From Bacilli bacterium (GTDB lineage: Bacteria; Bacillota_I; Bacilli_A; ML615J-28; CAG-313): 64,000 nucleotides of DNA. Shown piece after piece: positions 4,531-53,822 of the stretch. Below the pieces are notes generated by a model that saw only the letters and a list, made by a program, of their open reading frames with translations, ran no database searches and was not told the origin of the DNA. Made by a program: the position numbers and the translations under genes. Each line of letters begins with the position of its first letter. Position 1 is the first letter of the stretch. The DNA is taken from positions 124,695 through 188,694 of the forward strand of contig CAADXH010000018.1 in NCBI GenBank assembly GCA_900752975.1. The letters run 5' to 3'.

Positions 4531-5310
4531 TTATACACAGTACATGATTGGTTGGTTTTCATTTGCAGGGTTTACATATCCGTCACGAAGTGTACTAATA
4601 AAATCATCTCTTCTACTTGCCCAGTTTTCTATATAACTTAGTTTCAAATCTACTCCGGCAAACACTGTTTCCAACCCATCATAATGCTGAAGATAAGCTA
4701 CTAGAAAATTAGCTACATCAGCAGTTGCAAGATTCTCAAAAAGTTCCATTTGGGTAGGCGGTATCGTAGATAAATTTGATGGATGAGTTACAAATACATC
4801 CAATGGAATTTCTCCAAGACCACCAGTAATATCACCATGAGTTGCACTTTGTAGTCTTACCATATTTGGAAATTTAAAGTCAATAAAGATACTATTGTTA
4901 AATACTGATGTAAGGTCAGCTCTTGCTTGTAATAGCATTACATCATCCATAGAATAACTATTATAAGCAGATAAATAGTCATAATATCCGATACCAGATT
5001 GCTGAGCCATACCACCATCGTTTTGCCCATATACATCCCAAGCAATATCTCTAACACCAAGAATTTCAGCACCACCAAGTAAGTCTGTATTGATTACATA
5101 GTAATCACCTTTCTTATTTTTTGGATCTCTTGTATCAATCTTGATTCTTACCATATGAGGAATATATCTAGAAAATGTAAGAAGTGTATCAGGAATAATT
5201 GTCTCATCAACCCATTTATCTTTCGCAATATCTTCGGGAAGCATTAGAGGTTTTGTTCCCAATCTACGCTCAATCTTATTAAGAAGAATATTCATTTTAT
5301 TAAAAGCCAT
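4531..5310 (-). CDS. hypothetical protein
   Basis: SD GGAAGGAG precedes MAFNKMN...; 259-aa ORF. Confidence 0.6.
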   Translation of the reverse strand: MAFNKMNILLNKIERRLGTKPLMLPEDIAKDKWVDETIIPDTLLTFSRYIPHMVRIKIDTRDPKNKKGDYYVINTDLLGGAEILGVRDIAWDVYGQNDGGMAQQSGIGYYDYLSAYNSYSMDDVMLLQARADLTSVFNNSIFIDFKFPNMVRLQSATHGDITGGLGEIPLDVFVTHPSNLSTIPPTQMELFENLATADVANFLVAYLQHYDGLETVFAGVDLKLSYIENWASRRDDFISTLRDGYVNPANENQPIMYCV

Positions 5311-5354
5311 ATATAACACTCCTTCCGTTATATTATAATGATGTTCAAGACAAA

Positions 5355-5416: not shown

Positions 5417-6433
5417 TCAGATATTAGATTCTTGTCTTTCTTGATAAGCAGGATAGATCTTCTTATCATCTGTGAGAATAGCATGCTTAAGTTGAAACTC
5501 ATTCTTAAGAATAATAGAAATCCTATGCTTAACGTCATCTGCTGAATAATGATCAGGTATAAGATACTTAAATGATTGTCTAAACGAATCCATTACAAGT
5601 GTTCCACAAATTTCATATATTTCTTCTTGTGAAACTCCTCTTCCAAAAGATAAAAGCATATTCCTAATTTTCTTAAAGACTATGCTATCCAAAATCTTTT
5701 CATAGTCATACGCGGAATACGTACAATTAACTGTTTCAACAGTTCCTGATGTTCTTGGTATGAGTTCATCATCTGTTGGAATACTGCGTACAGAATACTT
5801 TTGATTTAAAAGACAGGTAGTAAATCCTGGAATCATATAACCATTCATTACATCATATATAGACAAATCTCCGAAAATGATATAACGAATCCGATCAAAC
5901 TCTTTACGAGTAATACACTGGTATCCAAAAATATCTTCAAATTCTATCAAGAATAAATAACTTTCCTTATGGAATTTATCCAATCTATATTGATCGAGTA
6001 ATTTCTGAAGAAAGGTACTATTTGTATCAGAACTAAAAACACCATAATCGATTCTACACTTACTGTATTCCCTTCTGATATCGATGATATCATAATCTTT
6101 TACCAATTCTGGATTATAATCATTGAACGAAAATACAGAAAGCTCTTTAATAATATTTTCTTTGATTGTTTCATCTCCAAGTGAATACTCAGCCAGTTTA
6201 GGAAATGATAACCTCCTTATAGTGTTAGTTAATTCCTTATTCTTACCAATAGTGTTCAAAATAGTCTTTCCATTTTTATCAATGAAATTGAGATGATCAA
6301 TAATAGCTAAAGCTGCAGCATCATACATCTCCTTTAAAGACATATCTTCCTTAATACCATAACGTCTTATTATTGCCGTCATGATTCCATTAAAGATGGT
6401 TGTTGTTCTTGCGTTTCTCTTTGTTGTTTTCAT
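5417..6433 (-). CDS. hypothetical protein, paralog B1; C-terminal 31 aa copied from the DNA polymerase KKxY/thumb region
   Basis: Paralogous to 6499-7422 (MKT[TA]KRNART.TIFN..., YMIPG, ELIP.TSGTV.TVN, KNMLLSFGRG.SQEEIY.ICG). Its tail ILKNEFQLKHAILTDDKKIYPAYQERQESNI is close to identical to the polymerase residues encoded at 55378-55470. Confidence 0.65.
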   Translation of the reverse strand: MKTTKRNARTTTIFNGIMTAIIRRYGIKEDMSLKEMYDAAALAIIDHLNFIDKNGKTILNTIGKNKELTNTIRRLSFPKLAEYSLGDETIKENIIKELSVFSFNDYNPELVKDYDIIDIRREYSKCRIDYGVFSSDTNSTFLQKLLDQYRLDKFHKESYLFLIEFEDIFGYQCITRKEFDRIRYIIFGDLSIYDVMNGYMIPGFTTCLLNQKYSVRSIPTDDELIPRTSGTVETVNCTYSAYDYEKILDSIVFKKIRNMLLSFGRGVSQEEIYEICGTLVMDSFRQSFKYLIPDHYSADDVKHRISIILKNEFQLKHAILTDDKKIYPAYQERQESNI

Positions 6434-6498
6434 AATAATTCTCCAATCTGTGTTTTAACGTCTTTATCACCTGACATATTATTTATTTAACCTTTTCT

Positions 6499-7422
6499 TT
6501 ATATCTCATCTTTGAACAAGTCTCTACCCTTTAATACCGAATAATAATCGGACACAAGATGTTTTAGCGATGGATTGAGTATATACACAAATGATCCACA
6601 AATATCATATATTTCTTCTTGTGAAAGTCCCCTTCCAAAAGATAAAAGCATGTTCTTAATTTTCTTAAAGACTATGCCATTCAGAATCTTTACATAATTA
6701 ACTGTTGAAACAGTTCCTGATGTTTTTGGTATAAGTTCATCATCTATTACTTTAGAGATAACTCCCTTATCACCATATCTAGATGCGATTTTACCATCAT
6801 CATTTGTTGGAATACTGTGTACAAAATACTTTTGCTTTAAAAGGCAGATAACATGTCCTGGAATCATATAACCATTCATTACGTCATATATTACATCATC
6901 ACTAAAAGTGATATAACGGATTCGATCAATTTGCTTACGAGTAAGGAACTGATATCCAAAGATTGTTTCGAAAAGAATCAATGCTCTGTAATTCTTTTCC
7001 TGATGTGCTCTCCGAATATAATCCTTACACAAGTCTCGAATAAAGTAAGATTCAGATAAGTTATCAATTCTATCAATCAGATATGAAATGAATGTATCAT
7101 TATCAAATTGATTGATATCAAATTTGTGGATGTCAATAAAGAACTGTCTAGTTTCAGGATTTATAACTTTGATATAGTTATCAGAATCAACCAAAGATAC
7201 TCTTCTTCCCTTGTTAATCAAGTCCTTATTTGGTCCAAAGGTATTATATATAACCTTTCCGTCTGCATCAAGGAAATGGAATATAAAATCATCCTTTTCT
7301 TCCAAGATGTCGTACACCGAACGCAATTTTCTTTTTCTATAAATACCATACATAGAAGTTACTGCGTGCATAACATTGTTAAAGATGGTTACGGTTCTTG
7401 CGTTTCTCTTTGCTGTTTTCAT
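6499..7422 (-). CDS. hypothetical protein, paralog B2
   Basis: Same family as 5417-6433. The upstream ~45 nt, including a conserved 15-codon mini-ORF, is also duplicated. Confidence 0.65.
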   Translation of the reverse strand: MKTAKRNARTVTIFNNVMHAVTSMYGIYRKRKLRSVYDILEEKDDFIFHFLDADGKVIYNTFGPNKDLINKGRRVSLVDSDNYIKVINPETRQFFIDIHKFDINQFDNDTFISYLIDRIDNLSESYFIRDLCKDYIRRAHQEKNYRALILFETIFGYQFLTRKQIDRIRYITFSDDVIYDVMNGYMIPGHVICLLKQKYFVHSIPTNDDGKIASRYGDKGVISKVIDDELIPKTSGTVSTVNYVKILNGIVFKKIKNMLLSFGRGLSQEEIYDICGSFVYILNPSLKHLVSDYYSVLKGRDLFKDEI

Positions 7423-7532
7423 AATAATTCTCCAATCTGTGTTTTAACGTCCTTACCACCCGACATGTGATTAAAATTTATCAGCATCGTCCTCATCATC
7501 AATGAATACTTTACCTGTCGGTTTCATCTCTT

Positions 7533-7946
7533 TCATTTCAGATTCAAATGATGTTTTTTGAGCTTCTTATTGTAATAGAATGATTCTAAAGGGTTAATCC
7601 AATAAGATTCAACATTTGTATGAATATGAAGGATTTTATGACCACTACAAGGAACATAGTACAAATTACATTTTGTAAAGATTCCTGCAAGTTCTGGTTC
7701 CATTTCCTTTACCCGATAAATGATAAAGGAAATAGCTTCTGTCGAATTTTTGAAAATGTATGATAAAGAATCGCTACATTTCATAAAAACTTCTTCATCA
7801 CCAAACACTTTCATAGCGTCGGTAATCAAATTACTGCGTCCTATCACGCTTTCTAAGTCATAATCAAACACTTTCATAGTACCGGTAATCAAATTACTGT
7901 GTTCTATCATGCTTTCTAGGTCATAGTTCTTGTCAAAAATTTTCAT
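7533..7946 (-). CDS. hypothetical protein with N-terminal tandem ~20-aa repeats
   Basis: SD AAGGAGAGG precedes MKIFDKNYDLESMIEHSNLITGTM / KVFDYDLESVIGRSNLITDAM / KVFGDEEVF; 7790-7930 forms a DNA tandem repeat. Confidence 0.6.
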   Translation of the reverse strand: MKIFDKNYDLESMIEHSNLITGTMKVFDYDLESVIGRSNLITDAMKVFGDEEVFMKCSDSLSYIFKNSTEAISFIIYRVKEMEPELAGIFTKCNLYYVPCSGHKILHIHTNVESYWINPLESFYYNKKLKKHHLNLK

Positions 7947-8014
7947 TTTAACCTCTCCTTTGTTTTGTGTTTCGAATAACATTTTCTTCTGCTATTCATA
8001 TAAATAGTATATAA

Positions 8015-8054
8015 TTTTTTAAAAGATTAATAGGGTAGAATTTAATCTACCCTA
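8015..8054 (-). terminator. rho-independent terminator
   Basis: TAGGGTAGA-loop-TCTACCCTA hairpin, with a T-run on the minus strand, downstream of 8060-8353. Confidence 0.6.
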
Positions 8055-8059
8055 TTATC

Positions 8060-8353
8060 TTATTGCGTAATCTTAATAATCAGTTTATCATTATCTGGCA
8101 TTACGGTTAATACTTTATAAGCATAACCATAAATAATTACATCCTGTTCTTTTGGTAATGTATTAATTATATCTTCTTTCGATACTCCAGAAATATCATA
8201 TACAACACAAGTACCATCTGTACATGCACTAACTGAATATGATGAATTCTTTAGTAATGAATATAGAATCATATTTTGATTAATATAATTAATGACATAA
8301 TCGACGAGGTTAATACCAGATATATTCTTTGTAAAACTCAGTATATCTTCCAT
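8060..8353 (-). CDS. hypothetical protein
   Basis: SD GAAGGAGG; 97 aa. Confidence 0.55.
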   Translation of the reverse strand: MEDILSFTKNISGINLVDYVINYINQNMILYSLLKNSSYSVSACTDGTCVVYDISGVSKEDIINTLPKEQDVIIYGYAYKVLTVMPDNDKLIIKITQ

Positions 8354-8496
8354 TATGGTATTAATCCTCCTTCTTCTAATGCATCTTCCATCTCTTCAGC
8401 CTGAATCTGTTGTTTGCCTTCTTCAGATTTCATCTTTTCATATGCAATTGTATATAAAACCTGAAGCATCGCACAAGGCATTTCATATAATTCCAT
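8353..8496 (-). CDS. small hypothetical protein (47 aa), translationally coupled to 8060-8353
   Basis: MELYEMPCAMLQVLYTIAYEKMKSEEGKQQIQAEEMEDALEEGGLIP*. Its TAA overlaps the downstream ATG (TAATG). Weak SD. Below the ORF-track length cutoff. Confidence 0.3.
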   Translation of the reverse strand: MELYEMPCAMLQVLYTIAYEKMKSEEGKQQIQAEEMEDALEEGGLIP

Positions 8497-8543
8497 TAGA
8501 GTAATTCTACCTTTATAATAGGTTGAAATTTGTTCTAATCTCC

Positions 8544-10220
8544 TTATATCTTTTTCATAAGACCCAGTTGATGACGTGTAAAAAGCATGTTGTCAGGATT
8601 AATTTCTTGCTCGTCAATCTTCTTACCACATTTCGTACATCTACGTTCAGGATAAACATAAGTTACATCTCTAATCAAATCACCATCATCATTCAACTTA
8701 CCACCATCATACTTATCTGTTTCTACAGACAGTGCCATCAATTGGTCAGAAGTCAAAGACTTTAGAATGGTATCAAATGTCTTAATACGACGCTTATAAG
8801 TCAAAGACTTATCTGTTGCTACCGGCTTAGTATCAATCGGAACCAGTTCATTCTTATTATAATCAATCTTATAGATTGCATCGATATAAGACAACAATAG
8901 CAGACGATCTTCATATTTGGAATTAAACTCTTTATTTACTAAAGTAGGTTCAATGTATGTGTTATACAAAGATGGAACTTTAAGAGCAAATACATAGTCA
9001 TCAGATGCCTGATATAGGGATACTTGGTAATCAGAATTTGTAGAGTCGGTGCTACCTTCATGTAGAATCTTCATATATTCTTCCTTGATTTCATCATTTC
9101 TGAATTTAATCATAGAATGAATCGGTACAGATTCCATGAATACATTATTACACTTATCATCGGAGCAAGAGAATGTAATAATATTTGTCAATCCGAATGT
9201 AGCCTTATATGCAGTAAACATATAATCATCGATAACTGTATTTGGAGTAATCATTGCCCATGCTTCAAATGTCTTTGGTTTATTGGCATCTACAATGTGC
9301 TCATAAATAAGCTTCAACTTATTTTCAATATACTTATTATAGTTTCCAGATCTCAATCTAGATGGGTCAATCGATTGGATTTCCATCGGCTTCCATGCAG
9401 ACATTCTTACTGCACGCTTTTGAGCATATAGAACACCATCAGCACATTCAATTGCCTTTGCCTTAATATCATTAATAACCTTAGCTGCATTGATTGGCTT
9501 CTTAGAAATTGTAAACTTACCAAAGTTAATCTTCTTATCCACAGGAACAAAGTTCTTATTCACTTCTTCGCGGATAATACTCTTGATTGCTTCAGTCTTA
9601 GCCTTCTCATCTTCATCTTCCTTTGAATCAGTGTCTTCATCAGAAGAATCCTCATCTAAATATTTGAGGTCTTCATCATCAATACCATCAAACAAATGTT
9701 CATCTTCTTCATCATATACAGAATCATCTTGTACCATTACAATGTTTTCTTTCTTAGTACCAGCAGCTGGTGCAGAAACTTCTACAGTCTTTTCAATAAC
9801 AACAGGTTTTTCTTCAACCTGACGTTCTACAACAACATCTTGTTTCGGCTGTTCTACATAGTCATCAAACTTATGAACAACGACAGTATTAGATGTGCTT
9901 GCATCTAAATCCATATCATCAACATTTGTTGTATCGGAATTAATTGCTTCTTCAATTCTTTGTTCTACACCCTTTTGATAAGTGTCATTCGTTTCATTCT
10001 GAATTCGATTAATAGATTCTTCTACACCAAGAAAAGCCTGGTCTAACATTGGATTACCAGTTCCTTCTACAACCTTCGGCTTAGATGGTTGTACAACCTC
10101 ATTTAAATTAGCTTCCTTTACAGAAGATGCATCCATTTTTGGTCTGACTGGCATTCCTACCGGAGTAGCAGTAGGGATTGCTCCATTTGCAAGATCAGAC
10201 AAAGTTACATTTTCATTCAT
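8544..10220 (-). CDS. hypothetical protein with an acidic D/E-rich central region
   Basis: SD AAGGAGGAAAC; 558 aa. Confidence 0.6.
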   Translation of the reverse strand: MNENVTLSDLANGAIPTATPVGMPVRPKMDASSVKEANLNEVVQPSKPKVVEGTGNPMLDQAFLGVEESINRIQNETNDTYQKGVEQRIEEAINSDTTNVDDMDLDASTSNTVVVHKFDDYVEQPKQDVVVERQVEEKPVVIEKTVEVSAPAAGTKKENIVMVQDDSVYDEEDEHLFDGIDDEDLKYLDEDSSDEDTDSKEDEDEKAKTEAIKSIIREEVNKNFVPVDKKINFGKFTISKKPINAAKVINDIKAKAIECADGVLYAQKRAVRMSAWKPMEIQSIDPSRLRSGNYNKYIENKLKLIYEHIVDANKPKTFEAWAMITPNTVIDDYMFTAYKATFGLTNIITFSCSDDKCNNVFMESVPIHSMIKFRNDEIKEEYMKILHEGSTDSTNSDYQVSLYQASDDYVFALKVPSLYNTYIEPTLVNKEFNSKYEDRLLLLSYIDAIYKIDYNKNELVPIDTKPVATDKSLTYKRRIKTFDTILKSLTSDQLMALSVETDKYDGGKLNDDGDLIRDVTYVYPERRCTKCGKKIDEQEINPDNMLFTRHQLGLMKKI

Positions 10221-11252: not shown

Positions 11253-12035
11253 ATGGGTAAACTTAAGTATACTTTCGATGATTATATTAATAATCCATCT
11301 GGTAAAGGCAGTGCTGTTTTAGCTTCTATCAATAAAGATCAGTTCGAAAAAGAACTTATGACATTAGAAGCGAACAATGCTAAGGCTACATATAAAATTT
11401 ACAAGCAAAACAAATCTGGAGGAAAGTTTACATATTATATTCATTTTCTCATTCCTTCTTCTACAAAAGGATTCTTTAATGATGTCGTTATAGAATTAAA
11501 TTCTAATCCTGACGACAATACAGTTACAAAGACTATCAAAGCTTATTATGTAAAATTCTTTTCAAATGATAGTAACTTTGTTTATACATATGCTTATTCA
11601 TTTAAATCTCACGGTGTTCTTATTACAGAACTAGAAAAGTTACTTCCTTTTAGATGTATCTCTCAAAAACCTGTGATGCGAAATCCAGATAATGCAATGG
11701 GATATAATAAAGGAATTATATATGCATATCTTATAATGGTTAGAGATGGACTGTTCAACAAAGAAACTCTCAATAGAAATTGTAAGTATGCGAATATAAC
11801 TGCTATTAGAAATACAATTCTTCCCTTCGATAAAAAGCTTCAGGAACGTAGAAAAATTGAAGAAGAATTGAAGAAAGCTGGCAAAGAGCAAAAACAAAGA
11901 TCTAGTAAGATTGTGAAGTCTAAAAATCTTCTAGGACCTGATAAAAAACAAGAACCAGCTAAAGTTTCTAAAACTGTTTCGAATGTAAAAACAACTTCTA
12001 GATCTTCAACTGCCAAAAAGGTTAAAAAGCGATAA
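11253..12035 (+). CDS. hypothetical protein with a Lys-rich basic C-terminal tail
   Basis: SD TAGGAGGAAAA. C-terminus KKAGKEQKQRSSKIVKSK...AKKVKKR. Confidence 0.6.
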   Translation: MGKLKYTFDDYINNPSGKGSAVLASINKDQFEKELMTLEANNAKATYKIYKQNKSGGKFTYYIHFLIPSSTKGFFNDVVIELNSNPDDNTVTKTIKAYYVKFFSNDSNFVYTYAYSFKSHGVLITELEKLLPFRCISQKPVMRNPDNAMGYNKGIIYAYLIMVRDGLFNKETLNRNCKYANITAIRNTILPFDKKLQERRKIEEELKKAGKEQKQRSSKIVKSKNLLGPDKKQEPAKVSKTVSNVKTTSRSSTAKKVKKR

Positions 12036-12100
12036 GGTTGTATATTATATTTGTGTATGAAGATTTCTTCATATAAAATTTAATAGGAGGCTAAGAGATA

Positions 12101-13711
12101 ATGGATATAGCAGAAATTTGTCACAGCACAAACTATTGGGTAGAAGTAGATAAATGGACACCACTTCTAGAAGATAGAATTTTTAACGAAACAAAGAATG
12201 CCATAATTCTTCCGGTATCAAAGTTTTATGGTTTAAAAGAAGATTCAATTCTTCTCGATAATTTTATATTGATACCAAAAAGATGCTATAATTCAGATGA
12301 AGTCAGAGGACACATTGTTAAGTATCTGAATTACTTTGAGAGATTTTATGACATAGAGCACGAACTACTATTTTACATCTATCGTATCAAAATCTTAATT
12401 GACATGGGTATTGATTACAAGGATGCAAATGGTAATAAAGTTCACGCTGAATATAGTCTAGAAAATTTCTTGAATGATATCAAGACATATATCTTATCTG
12501 ATAGTATTTACAAGAAAACTTGGAAGATGGTAGAAGATAACTATAGTCTTGAATTGAACTACAAGAACAAAGCAAATGAAGCTCTTCAGTATTGTGATAG
12601 ACATGGTAAGTATCTTATGGAAATTAGTATATTCCAGAATATATTGATTCCATTGTTGATGCACTTTGTTTATAAGAACAAACTGAGCACATCTACAGAT
12701 ACAGTGAACAAAATTATATTCACTGTGTATAATTGGTTGTTTGATGTCTATAAAGATTATAATGTGATGGCAAAGCGTGGATTACAACCTGCTGATATTT
12801 TTCAGAAGTTGTATGAAACTGCTATCACAACAATGAATGCACATTATAAGACAAACAAAATCTTATGGGAAATGTCTAGTATCCGAGGATTTTGTCCAAC
12901 AATCAATGCAAATGATGCAATTGATATTGTCATCATGCAGGTAATCCCGAAATATACCTTTAAAGGAAACGTCATTTCATATAACATTTCTTCTATTAGA
13001 AATAATATCAAGTATAATATTTCTGATATTGGATTTGAATATGATTTTGTTTCCTTATCTTCATCAAAAAGAGATGGTGAAGATAACACATCTCAATTTG
13101 ATAAGTTCGAAGCACATCTTCAAAAGACTGATGAAGGATTAGCACTTCAAAATGACTTTAGAGCAGAAGTTATCATGGATAAGATAACAAAACTCGAAGG
13201 TGGGGTATCTAAGAAAGAAATCGATTTCTATCGAAAAGCTCTGATAAAGAATGGACAATTCTTAGTTAATAAGTTTCAACAGAATCTCGTAAACAATATC
13301 TTTTATAAGTATTTTGGAGATACTGTTTCGATCAATAGTATTAACGCAGATGACTATATTACACTTATTGTAATTGGAAAGAGAATACTTCTTAGAAGTG
13401 GAATGAAACTATTACCGTATATTGTTTCGAGTGCAGTTGTAAAGATTTCTACGAGAACCGGTGTTTGTAAGAAAGAACTTATGAAAATCGAACAGTCAGA
13501 ATATTACTCTGCTTTGAAACGAAAGTATAATGGTAATGAGAAGATTATGAAACAGATTTTCTCACTGATTGCTACAACACTATCTAGCAGCTTTAAAATC
13601 ATCGATTATGATGAAGATAATGAAAAAGCTGGTAAGTATAATGGTAAAGATGTAGTAATGGAAAACGATATTATCATCGATGAGATGATAAGATTTATCA
13701 TTGCAATATAA
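12101..13711 (+). CDS. hypothetical protein
   Basis: SD TAGGAGGC; 536 aa. Confidence 0.6.
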   Translation: MDIAEICHSTNYWVEVDKWTPLLEDRIFNETKNAIILPVSKFYGLKEDSILLDNFILIPKRCYNSDEVRGHIVKYLNYFERFYDIEHELLFYIYRIKILIDMGIDYKDANGNKVHAEYSLENFLNDIKTYILSDSIYKKTWKMVEDNYSLELNYKNKANEALQYCDRHGKYLMEISIFQNILIPLLMHFVYKNKLSTSTDTVNKIIFTVYNWLFDVYKDYNVMAKRGLQPADIFQKLYETAITTMNAHYKTNKILWEMSSIRGFCPTINANDAIDIVIMQVIPKYTFKGNVISYNISSIRNNIKYNISDIGFEYDFVSLSSSKRDGEDNTSQFDKFEAHLQKTDEGLALQNDFRAEVIMDKITKLEGGVSKKEIDFYRKALIKNGQFLVNKFQQNLVNNIFYKYFGDTVSINSINADDYITLIVIGKRILLRSGMKLLPYIVSSAVVKISTRTGVCKKELMKIEQSEYYSALKRKYNGNEKIMKQIFSLIATTLSSSFKIIDYDEDNEKAGKYNGKDVVMENDIIIDEMIRFIIAI

Positions 13712-18917: not shown

Positions 18918-20717
18918 TTAAAATTCTGGATTTACAAATTTAACTGAGTCATCAGGTTGTACAGTTAATTCATATAGACAAAGAATATTTTCTTTAGAAA
19001 TATCTCTTACTGCATAACCATTCATACCCAATACTTGAATTTTAGCATTTGCTTGCTTTTCACATTCTTGATTTGCTTCTATTGTATAGACTGGTTTTAC
19101 AATAGCAGTGTCCCCATCATAGTCCATCCCCATTGCACCTATTAATCCGTTACAAATAGAAAGAGTATCTTCAAACAGAGGAGATGTATTTGAATTTAAA
19201 TCTTTTGCTTCGATAACAGGATACCATTTGTAGAGTTTCATATTATCTTCGAATCCAGATTGAACAACCATAGGACAAGTTTTTACAGTAGATTTGATTC
19301 TAACTTTAGATGGATACTGATTTAAGAATGAGTCAATAGGGAAACGTGTAATTAATACCATCTTATCTTCAGTAACATCACATGCTGCCATATAAAACAA
19401 ATCACACCACGTAAGTCCTCTTTCTATTTTTAAATCAGCTGAGTATTCCTTTTTTGTTTTATTATAATCTTTAGCATTGTTTAATCTATATCCACCAAAA
19501 AACATACCAAATTTTAATGACTTTAAATCAGCTTTCTTTCCAGTAGAAGTTTTTACTTCGTTATTTTTAACTCGCCTTGCAAATTCTTCTTTATCTACAG
19601 GAAGTTCTATTGGAATAAAACGATTAGAATAACCATGAATAAAACGTTCAATCTGTTTCTCTAGTTCTACATCAGAGAATGCTATCTGATAATCGACCAA
19701 GGGAACATAGACAAATTCATTTTCATTAATCGCAATTGGATATTCCATTTTACCAGCAAATCTATTTTCGAAGAAACGTCTTAACCAGAATACAATAAAT
19801 GGTTTGAAACAACACAATGCTGCTGCTAACGGTAATGCAGCATGATTCATATCAATCATTAAATCATCTATTTCTTCTCCTGATACATCTGGTGCAGACA
19901 TTACCAAACGTGCGGAATAGTCTACTGTTTTATACAATGTACCACGTTTAATTAGACCCATTTTACCAGGAAGATTTGCTGGGGTTTCCTGTCCATTAAT
20001 TGTAGTACCGTTACCAAACCAGTCAAAGATTTGAAGTAAGATATTCTGTACTCTCGCTTTAGTAACTTCACTTAAAGTCAAGCCAAAACCAGCAGTCTCT
20101 TTCAATGATTTTGTAGCCATAATCAGACTACTATATAACTTATTAATTTCACCCACACCAATACCGTTATCTCTAGATTCAACGTCACGATAATATGGTG
20201 GAATTACAATGTACTTTGTAATCCATAATTGGTCTTTGCTCTTTTGAATAAAATCGATTCTTTTATTACGAGAAGATGAATCATTCTTCTTAAATTTTAT
20301 TTTACTAAAGTTCTTTCTTAACCAATCAATACCTGTATTACCATCATCAGACTTCACTAATTCTCCGTTACTATCAATGATAAAATACTCAGTACCATTT
20401 ACAATACTTTCAATTTTATTATTTAACTTACATAAAGTCTTATATACAATTGGATGGAAAAAAGAACCTCCTAAATCAATATAAGCAAAGATACCAGAAC
20501 GTTCTGCTTTTGTAATACCAAAGATTTCATTTGATAATAAACCATCTTCTGTTGGTGTTGGACCATTGAAAAATACTGGGTTAGTAACTTCTTTTAGCAT
20601 ATTCACTTTAACAAACTTTTCCATATCCAAAAGAGAAGTTTTTAAGTGTTGTGTACTTGCTTCTGTAAAAAAATCAGTATCGTTTTTAACGATATTAACT
20701 GCTTCATCTATAATCAT
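18918..20717 (-). CDS. multisubunit RNA polymerase beta-prime subunit, N-terminal fragment (contains the catalytic DYDGD loop)
   Basis: VLITRFPIDSFLNQYP....GAMGMDYDGDTAIVKPVY aligns with bacterial beta-prime NRAPTLHRLGIQAF...YNADFDGDQMAVHVPL. N-terminal GLLSNEIFG...IDLG.SFFHPIV resembles the clamp region but lacks the zinc finger. SD GGAAGGAG precedes MIIDEA. Confidence 0.65.
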   Translation of the reverse strand: MIIDEAVNIVKNDTDFFTEASTQHLKTSLLDMEKFVKVNMLKEVTNPVFFNGPTPTEDGLLSNEIFGITKAERSGIFAYIDLGGSFFHPIVYKTLCKLNNKIESIVNGTEYFIIDSNGELVKSDDGNTGIDWLRKNFSKIKFKKNDSSSRNKRIDFIQKSKDQLWITKYIVIPPYYRDVESRDNGIGVGEINKLYSSLIMATKSLKETAGFGLTLSEVTKARVQNILLQIFDWFGNGTTINGQETPANLPGKMGLIKRGTLYKTVDYSARLVMSAPDVSGEEIDDLMIDMNHAALPLAAALCCFKPFIVFWLRRFFENRFAGKMEYPIAINENEFVYVPLVDYQIAFSDVELEKQIERFIHGYSNRFIPIELPVDKEEFARRVKNNEVKTSTGKKADLKSLKFGMFFGGYRLNNAKDYNKTKKEYSADLKIERGLTWCDLFYMAACDVTEDKMVLITRFPIDSFLNQYPSKVRIKSTVKTCPMVVQSGFEDNMKLYKWYPVIEAKDLNSNTSPLFEDTLSICNGLIGAMGMDYDGDTAIVKPVYTIEANQECEKQANAKIQVLGMNGYAVRDISKENILCLYELTVQPDDSVKFVNPEF

Positions 20718-20822
20718 ATATGTTTCTCCTTCCATATTAATTTATAAGATTGTTAAAGAGACAAAAAAAGAAAGCCTAACTCACGTCAGTCTTTCTTTAA
20801 TCCTTACAGATGATGCTTTTGA

Positions 20823-21065
20823 TTAGGGTTCATCATAATAATCTTCATCATCGTCATAGTAATCTTCTTCATAGAAGTTACCAGTTGCTTTCTCAACCTC
20901 CCTTTCGATATATTCTTTATAATCAGAAACAGCCTTTTCAGCTGCTTCTTTGGAGTTGTATTCTCCAATAAGAATAAAATAATCTTCTGGAAGAATACTA
21001 GAGATGCAAATTTCATCGTCGAAATCTTCAGTTGTGTAAGCATAAAAAGTTGTATTTGCGTTCAT
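20823..21065 (-). CDS. small acidic hypothetical protein
   Basis: Immediately downstream of the conserved leader copy A; ends ..EEDYYDDDEDYYDEP. Confidence 0.5.
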   Translation of the reverse strand: MNANTTFYAYTTEDFDDEICISSILPEDYFILIGEYNSKEAAEKAVSDYKEYIEREVEKATGNFYEEDYYDDDEDYYDEP

Positions 21066-21232
21066 GGTAATAGCCTTTTCCCTTCACCCTGGGAACATAG
21101 AATTTCTACGTCTGATGCTTGAGGTTTCAGGTATGCATCAACCTGTTTTCGATATAGAGTAATATTACTATCTCTATTCACTATAATTATATATAAATGA
21201 ATATACATAGTTTTACAAATATATACGCCTTA
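21066..21232. promoter_or_regulatory. bidirectional promoter + conserved 5' leader cassette, copy A (inverted repeat partner of 34505-34672)
   Basis: ~170 bp that is near-identical (with one 10-bp indel) to the reverse complement of 34505-34672. The leader half (21066-21160) abuts the ATG of 20823-21065. The promoter-motif half (21176-21219, ATTCACTATAATTATATATAAATGAATATACATAGTTTTACAAA) faces 21288. Confidence 0.65.
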
Positions 21233-32114: not shown

Positions 32115-32148
32115 TCCCAGATGGAGAAATCCATCTGGGATATTTTTA
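32115..32148. terminator. bidirectional rho-independent terminator between convergent genes
   Basis: CCCAGATGGA-GAAA-TCCATCTGGG hairpin followed by TATTTTTATT. Confidence 0.7.
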
Positions 32149-34455
32149 TTCTTCACCACTATCTTCATTTGACTCAGCTGCAACTCGTTGCTTTGCTTTA
32201 TGTGCAATATCTTCAAGTTCAGGGATATTAAGATAAGAACCGAGATTAAATTTATTAATCTCACGAATTACTTCATTCTTTACCGGTTCTTCTTCATCAG
32301 GGTCAAGAATTAACTGTGCGACACTCTGAGAATATTCATTTACGTTTGTCATCATTTGGTTTGTATTTGTAATGTTCAAGAACATTGGAGGTGGTAAAAT
32401 TACAGAAGTTTGAATATTATCATCAAATTCATTATTATAAATTTTATTGAAAATACGAGTAAGATTCATCTGAAACTTACTCTGTCTATTATATACTTTT
32501 CTCAAGAACTTACTAGATGACATTGTTAACTGAGAAGAATAGTCTACAGTATTTCTCATCTGAATCATTTCCATCGGAACATCTGTACTATTTACAGACA
32601 TTTCTTCTAGCATTGTCATAAATTCAGTTTGATATTCTACCGATTGTCCTTGCATAACTTCAAAATCAATTGGAGAATTACCACTAGGACCTCTAGGAAT
32701 AATATAGTCATTAAACATACCTGTGATATTCAAGATATGGTTAATATTTTCAATTTGTCTGATACCAAAGTTACCTTTTTTAATTTGATTAATGGTATTA
32801 AGAAGTGTTTTAGATATATTTGTATCAACAGTCTGATTTACATAGTATACTCTTTTATCCTGTGCTCTAGTCATATTCCAAATTGCATGAGTAATATAAT
32901 TTGCACAATATAATGTAGCTGGGAACATTGCTTTATCTAAATCGGAAATACCTCTATGGGTATCTTCATTCATTTTGAAATAGACATGTTCCATATCATC
33001 TGGTGGGATAAATGTAACTCGAACCTTATTCATATGGGAACTATTATTATCATAATTAAACTTAAGAACTGTATAAATTTCGTTTCTTAAGTCTTGATTT
33101 GCATTGATAAATTTTGCATCGATGAAATTAGAAATTTGGTTTGCAATATAACGAATAATATTGTTTTGTTTTGTAGACTGGTCAAGCATACTATTTGTAG
33201 ACAAAATAGAATTAGAACCTTTTAAAGACATTGTAGGGTCTTGCATCTTATCATAATCACCTACCGGATTATATGGACCATCTACTTCAATATAATAATA
33301 TCCAAAACAATAATTTTCAATATAAATTGGAATAACATGTTTTCTTTCCAAAATCTTTACAATTGTACCTGGGACATTAATATATCTATCGTCTTTTGAT
33401 TTCTTCTTTGCTTTATTCTTATCTACTAATCCTTCTTGACCTCTGTCATCAAATCCTTCAAAAGACAAATCGTCTTTAATTGTCTTCTGGAATCTTCCCT
33501 TTACGACATCTCGTATATTATTAGCTGATTCTTCGATTGTTTCCTCAGAAAAATCTGCACCTTCGTAATTTAACGACATCTCGTTTAATGAACGAGATGC
33601 TTTTTCAAATCGCATAATATTTTCTACAACAGAATTAATTGCACCTGTATAACATTCAAGTTGTATATTGTTTAATCCAGCTTGTTCAAACATTTCTGGT
33701 GTAATTTCTTTTGGTAATTTATCCATTTCAATATTACCAGATTCTGTAATAATTGTGTGCTCTTTAATATCCAATTCAGCACGAGTATTATTCTTTTGCT
33801 TTAATAATCTTGCTACGGCTTTCTTATATGGAACAATATATACAAATGCTTCTCCATACTTAGAAGCCTGGTCATAGATTTCATCAGTTAAATCCTGGAA
33901 TTTATATGTTTCCTTAATAAACTTAATATGTTCATTATAAGTTTCAGAATCATTTGTAATACTTGAAGAAGTCACATTGATAAAGTCTTTAGAAAAATGG
34001 TCAGCAGATAATACATTATCTTTTCTAGTATCCAACGCTTCTTGTAATCTTGGCATATATTTAAGAATCGTATCAATCTTATTATCATAATCAAATACAG
34101 TAGTTGTATCATTAATAAAGCCCATTAATCCAGCTTCAATAACTTGACTGTCGTTAATAAGAGATTCAAGACTTTGTCCACCTTCTTTATTTCCAGGTTT
34201 AATAGAACTTCCTTGTTGTTGCATTCTAGAATAGAGTGTACTCATTGTACCTCTACCAGTATTATCCATATTAACCGATACAATATTATCTATAGAAGAG
34301 TCTAGTTTATTCTTAATCGATTCAAGGTCTTGTTTATTAGATGCTTGTGAATAGTATGTTTTACTATATAGATTATCTAGACTATTTTGAATTGTATTAG
34401 AAAGTCTATTGATAATACTAGTAGATGATCTTTTCTTTTCATCCTTTTTAGCCAT
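32146..34455 (-). CDS. large hypothetical protein (769 aa); structural candidate
   Basis: SD AAAAGGAGGT; driven by the promoter-motif half of cassette copy B. Confidence 0.55.
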   Translation of the reverse strand: MAKKDEKKRSSTSIINRLSNTIQNSLDNLYSKTYYSQASNKQDLESIKNKLDSSIDNIVSVNMDNTGRGTMSTLYSRMQQQGSSIKPGNKEGGQSLESLINDSQVIEAGLMGFINDTTTVFDYDNKIDTILKYMPRLQEALDTRKDNVLSADHFSKDFINVTSSSITNDSETYNEHIKFIKETYKFQDLTDEIYDQASKYGEAFVYIVPYKKAVARLLKQKNNTRAELDIKEHTIITESGNIEMDKLPKEITPEMFEQAGLNNIQLECYTGAINSVVENIMRFEKASRSLNEMSLNYEGADFSEETIEESANNIRDVVKGRFQKTIKDDLSFEGFDDRGQEGLVDKNKAKKKSKDDRYINVPGTIVKILERKHVIPIYIENYCFGYYYIEVDGPYNPVGDYDKMQDPTMSLKGSNSILSTNSMLDQSTKQNNIIRYIANQISNFIDAKFINANQDLRNEIYTVLKFNYDNNSSHMNKVRVTFIPPDDMEHVYFKMNEDTHRGISDLDKAMFPATLYCANYITHAIWNMTRAQDKRVYYVNQTVDTNISKTLLNTINQIKKGNFGIRQIENINHILNITGMFNDYIIPRGPSGNSPIDFEVMQGQSVEYQTEFMTMLEEMSVNSTDVPMEMIQMRNTVDYSSQLTMSSSKFLRKVYNRQSKFQMNLTRIFNKIYNNEFDDNIQTSVILPPPMFLNITNTNQMMTNVNEYSQSVAQLILDPDEEEPVKNEVIREINKFNLGSYLNIPELEDIAHKAKQRVAAESNEDSGEE

Positions 34456-34504: not shown

Positions 34505-34672
34505 GTAATGACTTTGTAAAACTGCGTATATTCACTTATATATAATTATAGTGAATAGAGATAGTAATATAAGCTATATTCTATATCGAAAACAGGTTGA
34601 TGCATACCTGAAACCTCAAGCATCAGACGTAGAAACTCTACGTTCCCAGGGTGAAGGGAAAAGGCTATTATC
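34505..34672. promoter_or_regulatory. bidirectional promoter + conserved 5' leader cassette, copy B
   Basis: Reverse complement matches 21066-21232. The motif half (34514-34557) faces 32146-34455. The leader half (34576-34672) abuts the ATG of 34673. Confidence 0.65.
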
Positions 34673-35122
34673 ATGACCAACACAACTACTGCAACAAACA
34701 ATGCAATCGCTTCCGCTACGACAAACGGCTTTACCTTTGAAGCTGTGCTGAATGAAGTATCAGTTACTGATACAATGCACGCTACAATGGTAGAAACAAT
34801 GTTCAACATTGTTGTCACCAACACAGTAAGAAAGGGGGTACATGTTACCGAAAACTATCTCAAAAGAATGAACGAAACGTTCGAAAAGTTTTTAAAAGCA
34901 ACCAAAATCAAATATGTCAAGTCGGATATCGATCTTGACAGAACATTTGATGAAAAAACATTCATCTTTGAAGCAGACAAAGATGAATGGGAAGAAAATG
35001 CAATCAGCTTGATTGCATTATTAAAGAAAGAAAGAATCACATTTGACGAAAATACAGAAGAAGGATTTATCTGCTATGATGAATCTCAGAATTCTGAAAA
35101 AGATTTAATTATCGTCGAATAA
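34673..35122 (+). CDS. hypothetical protein (Thr/Ala-rich N-terminus)
   Basis: Directly follows the conserved leader; 149 aa. Confidence 0.5.
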   Translation: MTNTTTATNNAIASATTNGFTFEAVLNEVSVTDTMHATMVETMFNIVVTNTVRKGVHVTENYLKRMNETFEKFLKATKIKYVKSDIDLDRTFDEKTFIFEADKDEWEENAISLIALLKKERITFDENTEEGFICYDESQNSEKDLIIVE

Positions 35123-35804: not shown

Positions 35805-37841
35805 TTATGCTCCAATCTCCTTAGGCTTACTATACAAATAACCATCCTTAAGACTATTATAGATTTCAGTAAAGTTATTAAAATCAGACTTATCGAAATC
35901 AAATTTAGGTTGTTCAAATACAGACTTATCTCCACAAGCCATTGCATTAACAATCTTCAAATCTCGTTTATTTTTACAATTAATAAACAATCCACGATTA
36001 TCAACTTCTGGTTTTCTGGATACATCGTCAAAATCATGATACGTCAATATACCATTCGGTCGTCTTACTGTTGTGAAATACTCAATGATGTCATCATACA
36101 TTTCTTCATAACCAGCAAAATGGAACCAACGACTAAAGAATTCAATCCAGTTATGTGACTGTAAATCATCCATGAATTGAGCTTCTCTTCTCCATTTGAT
36201 TTCATCTCTATGAAATCTATTTTCAAATTCATATACCTTTTCTGGGATATTAACATGCCCAATCAATGTCGTCTGCGACATGTTAAATTCAGATGTGATT
36301 GATGGATACAAAGACTTATAATCAAAGTCATCCAGATTATTAAAGATAGATACTGGAATACCATTAATTCTCATCTTAGAATAATCACTATTATATTTCG
36401 GGTCTGCAACAAATGCACCTGGGAATTTTTCTTTCGGTGTATTCTGATTTGTATTATTACCCATAATCATTCCATATCTATAATATGACTTTGCTGCTCG
36501 ATTCTTAAGATATACAGTTTGACGATATATTTTTGACCAACGAGTATTGTCTAACAATACATTATTATATGCAGAGTCAATATCATTTACTTTAAACTCT
36601 ATACAATACTGTACAATTGTATCCATAATATTATAGAATACGAATGTTTCATAATCTTTATATGGTAATTCTGCAAGTTTCGTTGTAATATGACTATAAT
36701 CAAGTTTCTTTACACCACAAGTAATCTGTCCGATATAATCCAACTTATAATTCTCAATCGCTTTTTGTCCCTTTCGTCTAGACGCAAAATGAATCATCTG
36801 ATCAAGATACACCGAATATGAACTAATCTTTGCGAAGTCATTTCTTTCTTCATAATTAAACTTATTCTTCTCATCAATAAAGTAATTTACTTCTTTATAT
36901 CTGAAATCTGGATGACACATAATATCCTTTGGATTATATCCAAGATTGATAATTCGTTGGATGATATACGGAATATCGAATGCCATGTTCCATGCTAGCA
37001 CAGTATCTGGTTTGATATTGTTAATATAATTGAATAGGTGTTTTAATAAAACAATCTCATCTTCTTCATCATAGAAATGAAATTGAACAGTCATCTTATC
37101 AATCTTATACTTACAAGCTTGTTTCTCTCCACCAACCGCATCGATTAAGAATTGTCGTAATCGCATATTCAATGATGGTTTATTACATTCTTTTTCAAAT
37201 TTCTCAATCAATGGATTCTCTTTATTTCGTAATAAGAATGAATGAACAACCAAGGACTGATCATCAATAAATGATACTGCATTGATTGGACATTCACCAA
37301 GTTCTACGAATTCACCCTTACAATCAATTGTATCAGCTTCAATATCAAGAAATGATTTCGATGGTTTGGTATAACTATTCTCATATGAGTTCGCAAATTG
37401 AAACCTGATGTTATCTTCAATATCCATATCAGACATCAGGATCGCTGGGTTATAATTACATAACACTTTATTTGCAGCTCGATTCCGATTACGAATGTTT
37501 TCAAAGAACTCATTTGTTTTTCCTAATCGGTCTGCAATGTCTTTTTGAAGAGATATAAACGGCGTGATGATTCGTTTACAATCTTCTTTCATTGCATATT
37601 CCAAAGTATATCTTGGAACTTCTTTTCCATCAAGTAGCATATAATATTCATACTCAGGATTAATTATTGTTTCCAAAAACTTTTCACCTGACCGAATATC
37701 TTTGATAATCAAATCAATTGCCGGTGATAACCATTTCCCATTCGGATCTTTCTTTGGGTAATGGTAAATCGTGTTTAATAAAGATAACGGATATCCTTTT
37801 GGATATTGACCTATCAAAAAATCATCTTCGTAATATTTCAT
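35805..37841 (-). CDS. family B DNA polymerase, N-terminal part (3'-5' exonuclease domain + polymerase motif A)
   Basis: Exo I FLDIEAD; Exo II AWNMAFDIPY; motif A DFDYKSLYPSI. The ORF stops about 170 aa after motif A, and motifs B and C are absent. SD TAGGAGGC. Confidence 0.75.
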   Translation of the reverse strand: MKYYEDDFLIGQYPKGYPLSLLNTIYHYPKKDPNGKWLSPAIDLIIKDIRSGEKFLETIINPEYEYYMLLDGKEVPRYTLEYAMKEDCKRIITPFISLQKDIADRLGKTNEFFENIRNRNRAANKVLCNYNPAILMSDMDIEDNIRFQFANSYENSYTKPSKSFLDIEADTIDCKGEFVELGECPINAVSFIDDQSLVVHSFLLRNKENPLIEKFEKECNKPSLNMRLRQFLIDAVGGEKQACKYKIDKMTVQFHFYDEEDEIVLLKHLFNYINNIKPDTVLAWNMAFDIPYIIQRIINLGYNPKDIMCHPDFRYKEVNYFIDEKNKFNYEERNDFAKISSYSVYLDQMIHFASRRKGQKAIENYKLDYIGQITCGVKKLDYSHITTKLAELPYKDYETFVFYNIMDTIVQYCIEFKVNDIDSAYNNVLLDNTRWSKIYRQTVYLKNRAAKSYYRYGMIMGNNTNQNTPKEKFPGAFVADPKYNSDYSKMRINGIPVSIFNNLDDFDYKSLYPSITSEFNMSQTTLIGHVNIPEKVYEFENRFHRDEIKWRREAQFMDDLQSHNWIEFFSRWFHFAGYEEMYDDIIEYFTTVRRPNGILTYHDFDDVSRKPEVDNRGLFINCKNKRDLKIVNAMACGDKSVFEQPKFDFDKSDFNNFTEIYNSLKDGYLYSKPKEIGA

Positions 37842-38107
37842 ATTTAGCCTCCTAATCATCAACGAACGTAATACGTTCTTTCAATCTATTTATATATTTG
37901 TTTTCTCTGATGTAAAAGAAAAAATTATCTCCACAGAATGAACTGTGGAGATATCCAAATAAAATTAACAAGAGGAAAACAAACAAACTTCACAAGAGGA
38001 AAATCATGTCAACCAGATTTAAGGTCTTCCAACCTTATTTAAATGTTAACAAATATTAACGATTTATAAGAAAAACATCTCTATAAAATCACAAAGGAGG
38101 AAATAAC

Positions 38108-43457: not shown

Positions 43458-43471
43458 TGGAGGTGATAAGA

Positions 43472-44491
43472 ATGGATTATCTAGAAGGATTGAGAAGTAT
43501 CTTAAACGAAATTAATGTCGGTTCTGATCAACCATCTGCTGATAATACAACCGACGATTCCGAAGATGATGGAGATCAGAATTTCATGGACGATGGTGGT
43601 GGGGACGATACTACTACAGATGCTCCAGAAGAAACCACAGATGATTCCGAAGATGATGGTGACCAAAACTTCATGGACGACGGTGGTGGAGAAGATACTG
43701 GAGAAGATACAACACCTCCAGCTGACAACACTGCAGATGAAGATGATGGAGATCAGAATTTTATGGATGACGGTGGTGGAGACGATACTACTACAAATGA
43801 TACAGCAGATGCTTCCGAAGAAACCACAGATGATTCCGGAGATGATGATGCTGGCCAAAACTTCATGGACGACGGTAGTGGAGGAGACACTGGAGAAGGT
43901 GGAGGAGACGATGCTTCAGGTGGTGATGGAGGAGAAGAAACCACTGATGATTCTGAAGGAGAAAATAGTGAAGAATCCGAAGAAGGCTCTGATGAAAATG
44001 GATATGATATTAATAAAATTGAAGAGGAACTTTTCTCTAGTCTAACCCCTGAGCAAATTGCAATCAAGAATCATGAATTAAAGAATCAATTTATCGAATT
44101 ATATTCTATTATTGGAAGTACATTGGTCCGAATCAATGACATTTCTAAAACAAATGAAAATATCAATGTACTAAAATTTATTACAGAAAAATTATTGGAA
44201 TTAAGAGAAATGATTGACTTTAATATTACAACAGCATATCAAACTAGAACGTACATTGAGAATAACATCATCTATCAACAGTGTATTGCTACGTTAAATG
44301 CAATTGCAGAAATCATCGATAATATTCCAAAATTAGATGGAAGAGACGATTCAGAAGAAGAATCTGAAGAAGATAAGAATGGTATCCCAGTAGATAATGA
44401 AGATGAGGAAGAAACTCATACCTTAAATATATCTGACACAACATCTGGTAGTACTTATCAGGAAGAATCTGCGTTCAATTCCTTATTTTAA
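43472..44491 (+). CDS. acidic tandem-repeat protein (4 x ~25-aa (T/A)DDSEDDGDQNFMDDGGGDDTT units)
   Basis: SD GGAGGTGA precedes MDYLEG. DNA tandem repeat about 43540-43900. Confidence 0.6.
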   Translation: MDYLEGLRSILNEINVGSDQPSADNTTDDSEDDGDQNFMDDGGGDDTTTDAPEETTDDSEDDGDQNFMDDGGGEDTGEDTTPPADNTADEDDGDQNFMDDGGGDDTTTNDTADASEETTDDSGDDDAGQNFMDDGSGGDTGEGGGDDASGGDGGEETTDDSEGENSEESEEGSDENGYDINKIEEELFSSLTPEQIAIKNHELKNQFIELYSIIGSTLVRINDISKTNENINVLKFITEKLLELREMIDFNITTAYQTRTYIENNIIYQQCIATLNAIAEIIDNIPKLDGRDDSEEESEEDKNGIPVDNEDEEETHTLNISDTTSGSTYQEESAFNSLF

Positions 44492-53227: not shown

Positions 53228-53310
53228 AATTTTCTACCTCCTATAAAATACATTCTTTATAGTAATAGTTTTCGGGCGAGTCAAATCCTATTACTATCTT
53301 AATAGTATAC

Positions 53311-53363: not shown

Positions 53364-53822
53364 TTAGTGACGAGTTTTACTCATTTCTCTAGGCTGCAGT
53401 TTAGGGGTGTTTACATGTTTCTGACCCTGTCCAGAAACATACATACGCTGACCCTGTCTAGCAACGATCTGAGCCTTATTTGCATACTTCTTCTTAATAG
53501 CAGCAAGTAACTTACGTTCTTGAATACGATTCTTTACAAGCTTATTCCAAAGAGCATCATGATTGTCTTTAGCTAACTGTAAAGCAGCCATACCAGTACG
53601 ACGAGTCAAATCATCATTCTTATTCAACTTTACAATTGTTCTACGACTAATCTTCTTTGCTTCCATAAGTACATCTGCTTCTTCCAAAAGTTCACGCTTT
53701 TCAGAATCAGAATCTGCGTAATGATCATCATAGAAGAATGCTTCTTGCAATTCATCCATGTTTAAAGAAACTTGTGTTTCTCTCAAATCCTGAGAGAGTC
53801 TTTCATTTGTATAAAGTCCCAT
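53364..53822 (-). CDS. basic hypothetical protein
   Basis: SD AAAGGAGGAT; K/R-rich C-terminal half. Confidence 0.55.
   Translation of the reverse strand: MGLYTNERLSQDLRETQVSLNMDELQEAFFYDDHYADSDSEKRELLEEADVLMEAKKISRRTIVKLNKNDDLTRRTGMAALQLAKDNHDALWNKLVKNRIQERKLLAAIKKKYANKAQIVARQGQRMYVSGQGQKHVNTPKLQPREMSKTRH

Follow-up and report, generated by a model that had tools for sequence, protein, structure and literature searches.

Two RNA polymerase β' fragments encoded by an uncultivated AR9-like jumbo phage probably belong to two different enzymes

The 64,000-nucleotide stretch of contig CAADXH010000018.1 presented above (hereafter the window) carries two genes for fragments of the β' subunit of multisubunit RNA polymerase (RNAP), an N-terminal fragment encoded at 18918–20717 and a C-terminal fragment encoded at 51011–53227. 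Both open reading frames (ORFs) are present at these coordinates, as a first-pass annotation had reported, and lie on the same (minus) strand, 30.3 kb apart. That annotation had joined them as the two pieces of one split β'. Our analysis, which covered the window (~64 kb) and ~70 kb of the genome of a relative, points instead to two enzymes of the kind encoded by Bacillus phage AR9, one a virion RNAP (vRNAP), the other a non-virion RNAP (nvRNAP), with one window fragment assigned to each.

The gene for the N-terminal fragment, as called from its first ATG, spans 18918–20735 on the minus strand and encodes 605 amino acids; from the ATG at 20717 it encodes 599. The latter is the better start, because it has an AAGGAG ribosome-binding site 8 nt upstream and because relatives of the 599-amino acid protein begin at the same MxIDEAVNI. 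The protein matches phrog_2986, a family annotated as RNA polymerase subunit (E 2.6e-83), and has no match in a Pfam search. As a single sequence it aligns with bacterial β' over VIPPxxR, GKxGxxRxxxLxKxVDYSxR, and LPxxxALxxFKPF. These universal β' blocks read VIPPYYRD, GKMGLIKRGTLYKTVDYSARLV (GKxGLIKRxxxYKTVDYSARLV), and LPLAAALCCFKPF in the window protein, are encoded at 19797–20207, and correspond to bacterial residues ~314–458. The catalytic magnesium-binding loop (amino acids 532–536, positions 19110–19124) is DYDGD, the equivalent of bacterial NADFDGD. It aligns with bacterial DFDGD and is invariant in all relatives that cover the site, down to 37% identity. A profile built from nine relatives (37–85% identical to the window protein) matched AR9 gp270 (E 1.3e-15), bacterial β' (~1e-12), and cyanobacterial γ (3e-11) in the PDB, with the matches to gp270 and bacterial β' ranging from 1e-15 to 1e-9. 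The only cysteine in the first 300 residues is C96, and the CxC...CxxC pattern of the β'-type zinc ribbon is absent from this region. The protein stops 63 amino acids past the DYDGD loop (which ends at residue 536 of 599), and the β' split comes right behind the catalytic double-psi β-barrel. It is predicted to form the clamp and the active-site double-psi β-barrel, with DYDGD binding the catalytic magnesium.

The C-terminal fragment is 738 amino acids in length and matches phrog_3015, likewise annotated as RNA polymerase subunit (E 4.2e-49); its sole Pfam signal is Rpb1_5, below threshold. In the PDB, the single sequence matches AR9 gp154 (7S00_D, E 6e-23). A profile of 16 family members matches gp154 (1.1e-72, covering its residues 118–628), phiKZ gp74 (7OGP_D, 9.7e-20), and cyanobacterial β' (RpoC2, 9e-6), in alignments that take in bridge helix, zinc site (CxxC), and trigger loop. 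The protein begins upstream of the bridge helix (SLIARIAQILSKKNTARSGQFSRIMIL, amino acids 281–307, encoded at 52307–52387), which aligns with that of cyanobacterial β' and has seven residues invariant in the family (R285, A287, K292, N294, S298, G299, and R303). Four cysteines (C329, C390, C400, and C403; 52013–52246), invariant among the 16 family members, make up a zinc site that corresponds to the second one of bacterial β' and aligns with ...SPLTCEAARSVCQKCYG of that protein. They are followed by the N-terminal arm of the trigger loop (NIGIYSVTNLTEPLTQMMLSAKHLLE, amino acids 415–440, 51908–51985), in which T429 through E440 are invariant in the family. ICRKCMG (amino acids 399–405) and NIGIYSVTNLTEPLTQMMLSAKHLLE match GVCRKCYG...LTDPLTQRLLSAKHLLE of gp154 residue for residue. 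A trigger-loop insertion domain is known from non-virion β' C-terminal fragments and comprises residues 400–508 in gp154 (PMC9209446). A poorly conserved insert in the C-terminal fragment aligns with it, and the corresponding domain would extend over amino acids ~441–585. The product is thus predicted to combine a bridge helix with a zinc site and a trigger loop that carries an insertion domain. The first-pass annotation had described the alignment of the N-terminal fragment through the catalytic loop and its want of a zinc finger, a CxxCYG-like segment and a trigger-loop-like sequence in the C-terminal fragment, and highly diverged β' fragments of the AR9/PBS1-like jumbo phage type; all of these descriptions hold, and the PHROG and PDB profile matches are well above anything that chance would give.

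The assignment of each fragment to an enzyme was made by local tblastn of window proteins against the whole annotated AR9 genome, with bit scores summed. The N-terminal fragment scores 260 bits against g145, spread over all three of its exons, and 40 bits against g270. The C-terminal fragment scores 110 bits over 561 amino acids against g154 and 37 bits against g264. The AR9 record annotates g145 as the virion RNAP β' N-terminus and g154 as non-virion; g270 is non-virion and g264 virion. AR9 gp154, gp270, gp105, gp089, and gp226 co-purify as the nvRNAP (PMC5449584), and these five proteins are the chains of PDB entry 7S00. GenBank labels concur: the phage OBP match of the N-terminal fragment is called 'virion-associated', and the matches of the two fragments in Staphylococcus phage Madawaska are called 'viral' and 'non-viral', respectively. 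In addition, AR9 g264 and the virion β' C-terminal fragment of the relative described below end shortly after the trigger-loop arm, a known feature of this family, whereas the C-terminal fragment of the window continues beyond it. The two fragments thus appear not to be halves of one subunit. By orthology, the N-terminal fragment would belong to the virion set (as the ortholog of g145) and the C-terminal fragment to the non-virion set (as the ortholog of gp154 and phiKZ gp74), and the two products would not assemble together because they belong to different enzymes.

The pairing proposed in the first-pass annotation, in which the two products assemble as halves of one β' in a single phage RNAP, draws on the fact that the ORFs jointly span β' from its N-terminal region to the trigger loop on the same strand with no large overlap. 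Moreover, both enzyme sets are divided at the same site, past the catalytic barrel (PMC7598289). We nevertheless consider this pairing very improbable. The best AR9 matches of the two fragments lie in different enzymes by a margin of ~3- to 6-fold in bit score, each fragment has a better-matched partner in the same genome lineage, and the motifs upstream of the two genes are of different classes. The C-terminal fragment also matches solved nvRNAP chains of AR9 and phiKZ, while the N-terminal fragment, searched as a single sequence, matches no nvRNAP chain in the PDB. The question of whether both belong to the same enzyme, which the annotation had itself left open, is answered in the negative.

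The gene order around the C-terminal fragment also follows that of AR9. A superfamily II helicase gene adjoins it (49399–50949, minus strand; homolog of AR9 g156, tblastn 1e-49, phrog_16, Pfam ResIII) and serves as a synteny marker. On the other side, a homolog of the small virion protein of AR9 g153 (53364–53822) lies between the fragment gene and the catalytic part of a DNA polymerase (54003–56102, plus strand; homolog of g152, tblastn 2e-60, phrog_2927, Pfam DNA_pol_B). Helicase, β' fragment, small virion protein, and DNA polymerase thus succeed each other as do g156, g154, g153, and g152. The family-B DNA polymerase is itself split, its exonuclease-containing part being encoded 16 kb away at 35805–37862 on the minus strand (homolog of AR9 g132). 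A split family-B DNA polymerase is a core trait of RNAP-encoding jumbo phages.

The partners of the two fragments were sought in other assemblies of the lineage. The exact protein sequence of the C-terminal fragment occurs on many ENA contigs of 212–216 kb and has index entries in 71 of the collection's blocks. The viral genome IMGVR_UViG_3300045988_128423 (214,829 bp) is 94.8% identical to the window in nucleotide sequence over 21.8 kb. Partner genes were located by alignment-based scans of IMG/VR, in which the first sequence was chosen to re-rank matches; they were missing among the 120 listed matches of AR9 g264 and g089, as the lineage fell below the last match listed. In the relative, the virion β' C-terminal fragment (L074:9992–11206, 404 amino acids) is the ortholog of g264 (224 bits, 9e-67). 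Divergent from it and adjoining is the gene for the non-virion β' N-terminal fragment (L074:7784–9373, 529 amino acids), the ortholog of g270 (122 bits, 3e-31). This protein scores 0 bits against g145 and 122 against g270, the reverse of the preference of the window N-terminal fragment. It carries ADFDGD and ends 76 amino acids after it. It also has a CxC...CxxC cluster (C108, C110, C123, and C126) that resembles the zinc ribbon at the N terminus of bacterial β'; such a cluster is not seen in the AR9 gp270 translation, nor in the virion β' N-terminal fragment of the window. The β subunit is represented by non-virion C-terminal (L198:9926–12229; g089, 1e-69) and N-terminal (L198:16178–17920; g105, 1e-36) fragments, and by virion C-terminal (L198:6150–6869; g078, 4e-18) and N-terminal (L293, ~6001–9789; g189, 2e-53) fragments. 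The relative thus has four β' and four β fragment genes in two paralogous sets, all intact. Because these partner genes and a gp226 homolog in the window were found, the lineage appears to encode both complete RNAP sets, in which each window fragment would have a better partner outside the window. The genome search for β fragments that the first-pass annotation had suggested yielded β homologs, here in a 95%-identical relative, and the profile searches it had called for placed both fragments in phage RNAP and β' families.

These data also bear on whether one RNAP set is decaying, with one of the window genes a nonfunctional relic and the phage using a single enzyme. The extreme divergence from bacterial β', with Pfam matches absent or below threshold, would be in keeping with decay, as would the loss of the N-terminal zinc ribbon and the presence of degenerate β-derived ORFs nearby at 5417–7422. 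However, both window ORFs are intact, and many metagenomic relatives conserve them at identities from 99% down to ~30%, the catalytic Asp and the residues of bridge helix, zinc site, and trigger loop being invariant; the relative likewise has intact copies of all eight β and β' fragment genes and of the gp226 homolog. Decay is hence scarcely credible. The window phage forms a metagenomic clade of its own, with relatives at 58–99% identity and the next at 34–44%. Public annotation of both proteins is almost nil: they have no Pfam domains and are labeled 'hypothetical protein'. In two gut-metagenome contigs (L112:7438–8769 and L113:4567–5898), an RVT_1 gene lies two genes downstream of a related nvRNAP β C-terminal fragment (P0195). 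Staphylococcus jumbo phages of this group are also reported to encode a reverse transcriptase.

Promoter-like motifs of two classes occur upstream of the RNAP genes. In AR9, early promoters have the form AAATATATATTAT-N6-G and late promoters the form AACA-N6-T(A/G) (PMC5312081). A late-type motif (AACAATCTTATA, AACA-N6-TA; 20743–20754, minus strand) precedes the N-terminal fragment's ATG (20717) by 25 nt, after a terminator-like hairpin. An early-type motif (GTATACTATTAAGATA, RTATAYTAT-N6-R; 53295–53310, minus strand) lies 67 nt upstream of the start of the C-terminal fragment, and another (GTATATTATATTTGTG; 12040–12055, plus strand) precedes the gp226 homolog by 45 nt; AR9 g226 likewise has an annotated early promoter. 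In the relative, AACA-N6-TA is found 28 and 20 nt before the starts of the virion β' and β C-terminal fragment genes, respectively, so that the motif stands 20–28 nt before the start codon in all three vRNAP genes whose start can be placed. Both motifs are enriched in a strand-specific manner. RTATAYTAT-N6-R has 7 sense intergenic matches as compared with 0.43 expected from shuffles (0 of 300 reach 7), and AACA-N6-TA has 13 as compared with 3.3 expected (0 of 300); neither has an antisense match. The exact early core of AR9, TATATTAT, shows no enrichment in the window (16 occurrences, 16 expected). Some 10-mers that occur in excess (TAAGAATGAA and others like it) were considered as promoters and rejected, as they derive from coding K-N-E repeats. 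The first-pass annotation had remarked on a fit with promoter motifs not of the sigma-70 type, and such motifs are indeed present. Their placement is suggestive of the two-enzyme logic of AR9.

The fifth subunit of the AR9 nvRNAP, the sigma-like promoter-specificity subunit gp226, has a homolog of 536 amino acids in the window (12101–13711, plus strand), identified by tblastn against g226 (E 7e-12, 23% identity over 465 amino acids) and by a match to phrog_25005 'RNA polymerase' (1e-12). Its upstream neighbor (11253–12035) matches AR9 g227, and the gene order is thus kept. In AR9, V206 of gp226 excludes thymine from the –10 pocket. This residue aligns with an isoleucine in the window homolog, in an unreliable stretch of an alignment that is 23% identical and has an 8-residue gap beside the position. 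This widespread lineage might use the full AR9 mechanism, in which recognition of AACA-N6-TA late promoters by a gp226-like subunit would take place on the template strand and depend on deoxyuridine. The late motif identical to that of AR9 and the presence of the gp226 homolog are consistent with this idea, which we regard as tentative and on balance doubtful. AR9/PBS1, Yersinia phage phiR1-37, and Staphylococcus phage S6, which are among the nearest cultured relatives, are reported to have deoxyuridine genomes. If the idea were true, uracil would stand in place of thymine in the DNA of a phage that is common in the human microbiome.

Taken together, the window very probably derives from an uncultivated jumbo phage of ~212 kb, distantly related to AR9/PBS1 and to the jumbo phages of Staphylococcus and Listeria, that like them encodes two split multisubunit RNAPs, with the two window fragments coming from different enzymes. 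The evidence consists of homology and orthology, conserved catalytic residues, gene order, the eight fragment genes and the gp226-like gene, and the strand-specific enrichment of the motifs. Virion packaging, expression timing, and the matching of motifs to enzymes are inferred from the AR9 precedent. The vRNAP would be packaged and injected with the DNA, and would consist of the β' N-terminal fragment of the window together with a β' C-terminal fragment, a large β N-terminal fragment, and a small β C-terminal fragment, the last three encoded elsewhere. It would transcribe early genes from RTATAYTAT-N6-R promoters, including those for the β' C-terminal fragment of the window and the gp226-like protein. 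The nvRNAP, composed of a β' N-terminal fragment, the β' C-terminal fragment of the window, both β fragments, and the gp226-like specificity subunit, would then transcribe late genes from AACA-N6-TA promoters, among them virion genes and the genes for vRNAP subunits.

Several points weigh against this scheme. Virion packaging and timing are carried over by orthology at only 23–34% identity, and the presence of AR9 g145 in the virion is itself taken from GenBank annotation. The virion proteome of Staphylococcus phage DC4 comes without report of an ortholog of the N-terminal fragment (PMC10638138) and therefore provides no independent evidence on packaging. The partner genes come from a 95%-identical relative rather than from the sequenced molecule itself, and the vRNAP subunits covered by the search are the four β and β' fragments, not the small extra polypeptide (SPN3US gp244-like). 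As for the motifs, which are short, AACA-N6-TA is also found upstream of two DNA polymerase genes that are early in AR9, and three nvRNAP genes of the relative have neither motif directly upstream, two of these being inside operons. It is conceivable, then, that the virion and non-virion labels of AR9 do not transfer to this lineage, and that, for instance, both enzymes are made after infection or subunits are exchanged between them. The low identity to AR9 would allow this, packaging is not readable from sequence, and for phage DC4 the particle proteome included just a single RNAP subunit (PMC10638138). However, in every case examined the two paralogous sets are ancient and distinct (PMC7598289), and in this lineage the late-type motif precedes all three assignable vRNAP genes while the early-type motif precedes two nvRNAP genes. 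A failure of the labels to transfer is thus highly unlikely, and the two-enzyme assignment made from AR9 is preferred.

Among characterized systems, the closest likeness is to AR9/PBS1 (Takahashivirus), for which all nine RNAP proteins (vRNAP g145, g264, g189, and g078; nvRNAP gp270, gp154, gp105, gp089, and gp226) have one-to-one orthologs in this lineage. The site at which β' is split is shared, as are the local gene orders g152–g156, g226–g227, and g264 near g270. The late motif AACA-N6-TA is identical, and the early core is similar (TATAYTAT-N6-R here, ATATATTAT-N6-G in AR9). The differences are that identity is just 23–34%; that the window genes lack introns and homing endonucleases, whereas AR9 g145 has three exons; that the C-terminal fragment is 107 amino acids longer than gp154; that the β' N-terminal fragment of the lineage's nvRNAP has the CxC...CxxC zinc ribbon not seen in gp270; and that the window phage is uncultivated, comes from human-associated metagenomes, and has a genome of ~212 kb. 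Listeria phage LPJP1 and the Staphylococcus jumbo phages S6, PALS2, DC4, and Madawaska share the two-RNAP organization. LPJP1 and the Staphylococcus jumbo phages provide the top GenBank matches of the N-terminal fragment (34% and 31%) and are among the best for the C-terminal fragment, but identity to them is still only ~30%.

The phiKZ nvRNAP (gp55, gp74, gp71/73, gp123, and gp68; PDB 7OGP) is similar in that the family profile of the C-terminal fragment matches gp74 from the bridge helix through the zinc site to the trigger loop, and it also has five subunits, including one of the gp68/gp226 type (PMC5449584). It is far more distant than AR9, however, and the phiKZ late promoter is TATG rather than AACA-N6-TA (PMC5312081). 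The cyanobacterial and plastid β', divided into RpoC1 (γ) and RpoC2, is split after the catalytic barrel at the same position (PMC7598289). Unlike the phage proteins, RpoC1 and RpoC2 are part of a cellular enzyme with α, ω, and sigma. The phage vRNAP by comparison lacks the N-terminal zinc ribbon, and the phage proteins lack most lineage-specific domains. The likeness to RpoC1/RpoC2 is one of resemblance, not of membership.

Other features of the window include two tandem paralogous ORFs on the minus strand (5417–6433 and 6499–7422), which are 45% identical, have duplicated upstream regions, and match no family. ORF 6499–7422 holds ASRYGDKGVISKV, a β-subunit active-site motif, and positions 6713–6812 within it are 90% identical in nucleotide sequence to the nvRNAP β C-terminal fragment gene of the relative (L198:11109–11208). 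ORF 5417–6433 lacks 20 amino acids of the β-like patch and ends in a 93-nt patch (5420–5512) that is 87% identical to the DNA polymerase gene of the window (55377–55469). A diversity-generating retroelement was considered as the source of these ~100-nt patches and rejected, because the mismatches are not adenine-specific. Logan contigs break within the 5417–7422 region, and exact-sequence look-ups of ORFs 6499–7422 and 4531–5319 found nothing on record. The two tandem ORFs are possibly what is left of junctions of mobile elements with attached exon flanks.

An interrupted gene for an anaerobic ribonucleotide reductase (NrdD-like) lies at ~880–2047 on the minus strand. Its first exon (1268–2047) encodes the ATP-cone and the start of the NRDD domain, and the frame resumes below ~880. 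The gap contains a full-length, sub-threshold match to group I introns (939–1212, 19.9 bits, E 0.013) and is probably an ORF-less group I intron, as for nrdD of phage T4. Across the whole window, no Rfam match reached the gathering threshold.

A 100-nt inverted repeat (21062–21161 and 34577–34676, 96% complementary) consists of identical leaders and first codons of two small ORFs, 20823–21065 on the minus strand and 34673–35122 on the plus strand. Its degree of structure is moderate (z –2.2), and nothing in Rfam matches it. An AT-rich segment adjoining it recurs upstream of the portal gene (32146–34455) and of the vRNAP β C-terminal fragment gene of the relative (L198), and the whole has the look of an intergenic module, bidirectional and put to repeated use. 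At the end of the window, a giant ORF on the plus strand (56942–64000) is open for more than 2353 codons. It is missing from the ORF list, in which the region looks almost gene-free, because the window ends before it does. The version in identical ENA contigs encodes ~5100 amino acids with Peptidase_C39_2 and Phage_lysozyme2 domains. Lastly, four in-frame acidic repeats (EDDGDQNFMDDGGGD...) of ~90–100 nt each occur at 43562–43936 on the plus strand, inside ORF 43454–44491 and shortly upstream of the gene for the major head protein (44628–46658). The copies are 61–81% identical to the reference copy.

With the pairing of the two genes corrected, the ORFs at 18918–20717 and 51011–53227 need annotations that place them in two separate enzymes. 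The phage is no new kind of system; it is an uncultivated, ~30%-identity member of the known AR9-type two-RNAP phages. The diverged sequences of this lineage can be used to study which residues are constrained in minimal RNAPs that operate without α and sigma, and candidate promoters are now supplied for the clade. The AR9-type program of two RNAPs and two promoter classes would reach a diverged clade of ~212-kb phages that recurs in many human-associated metagenome assemblies.

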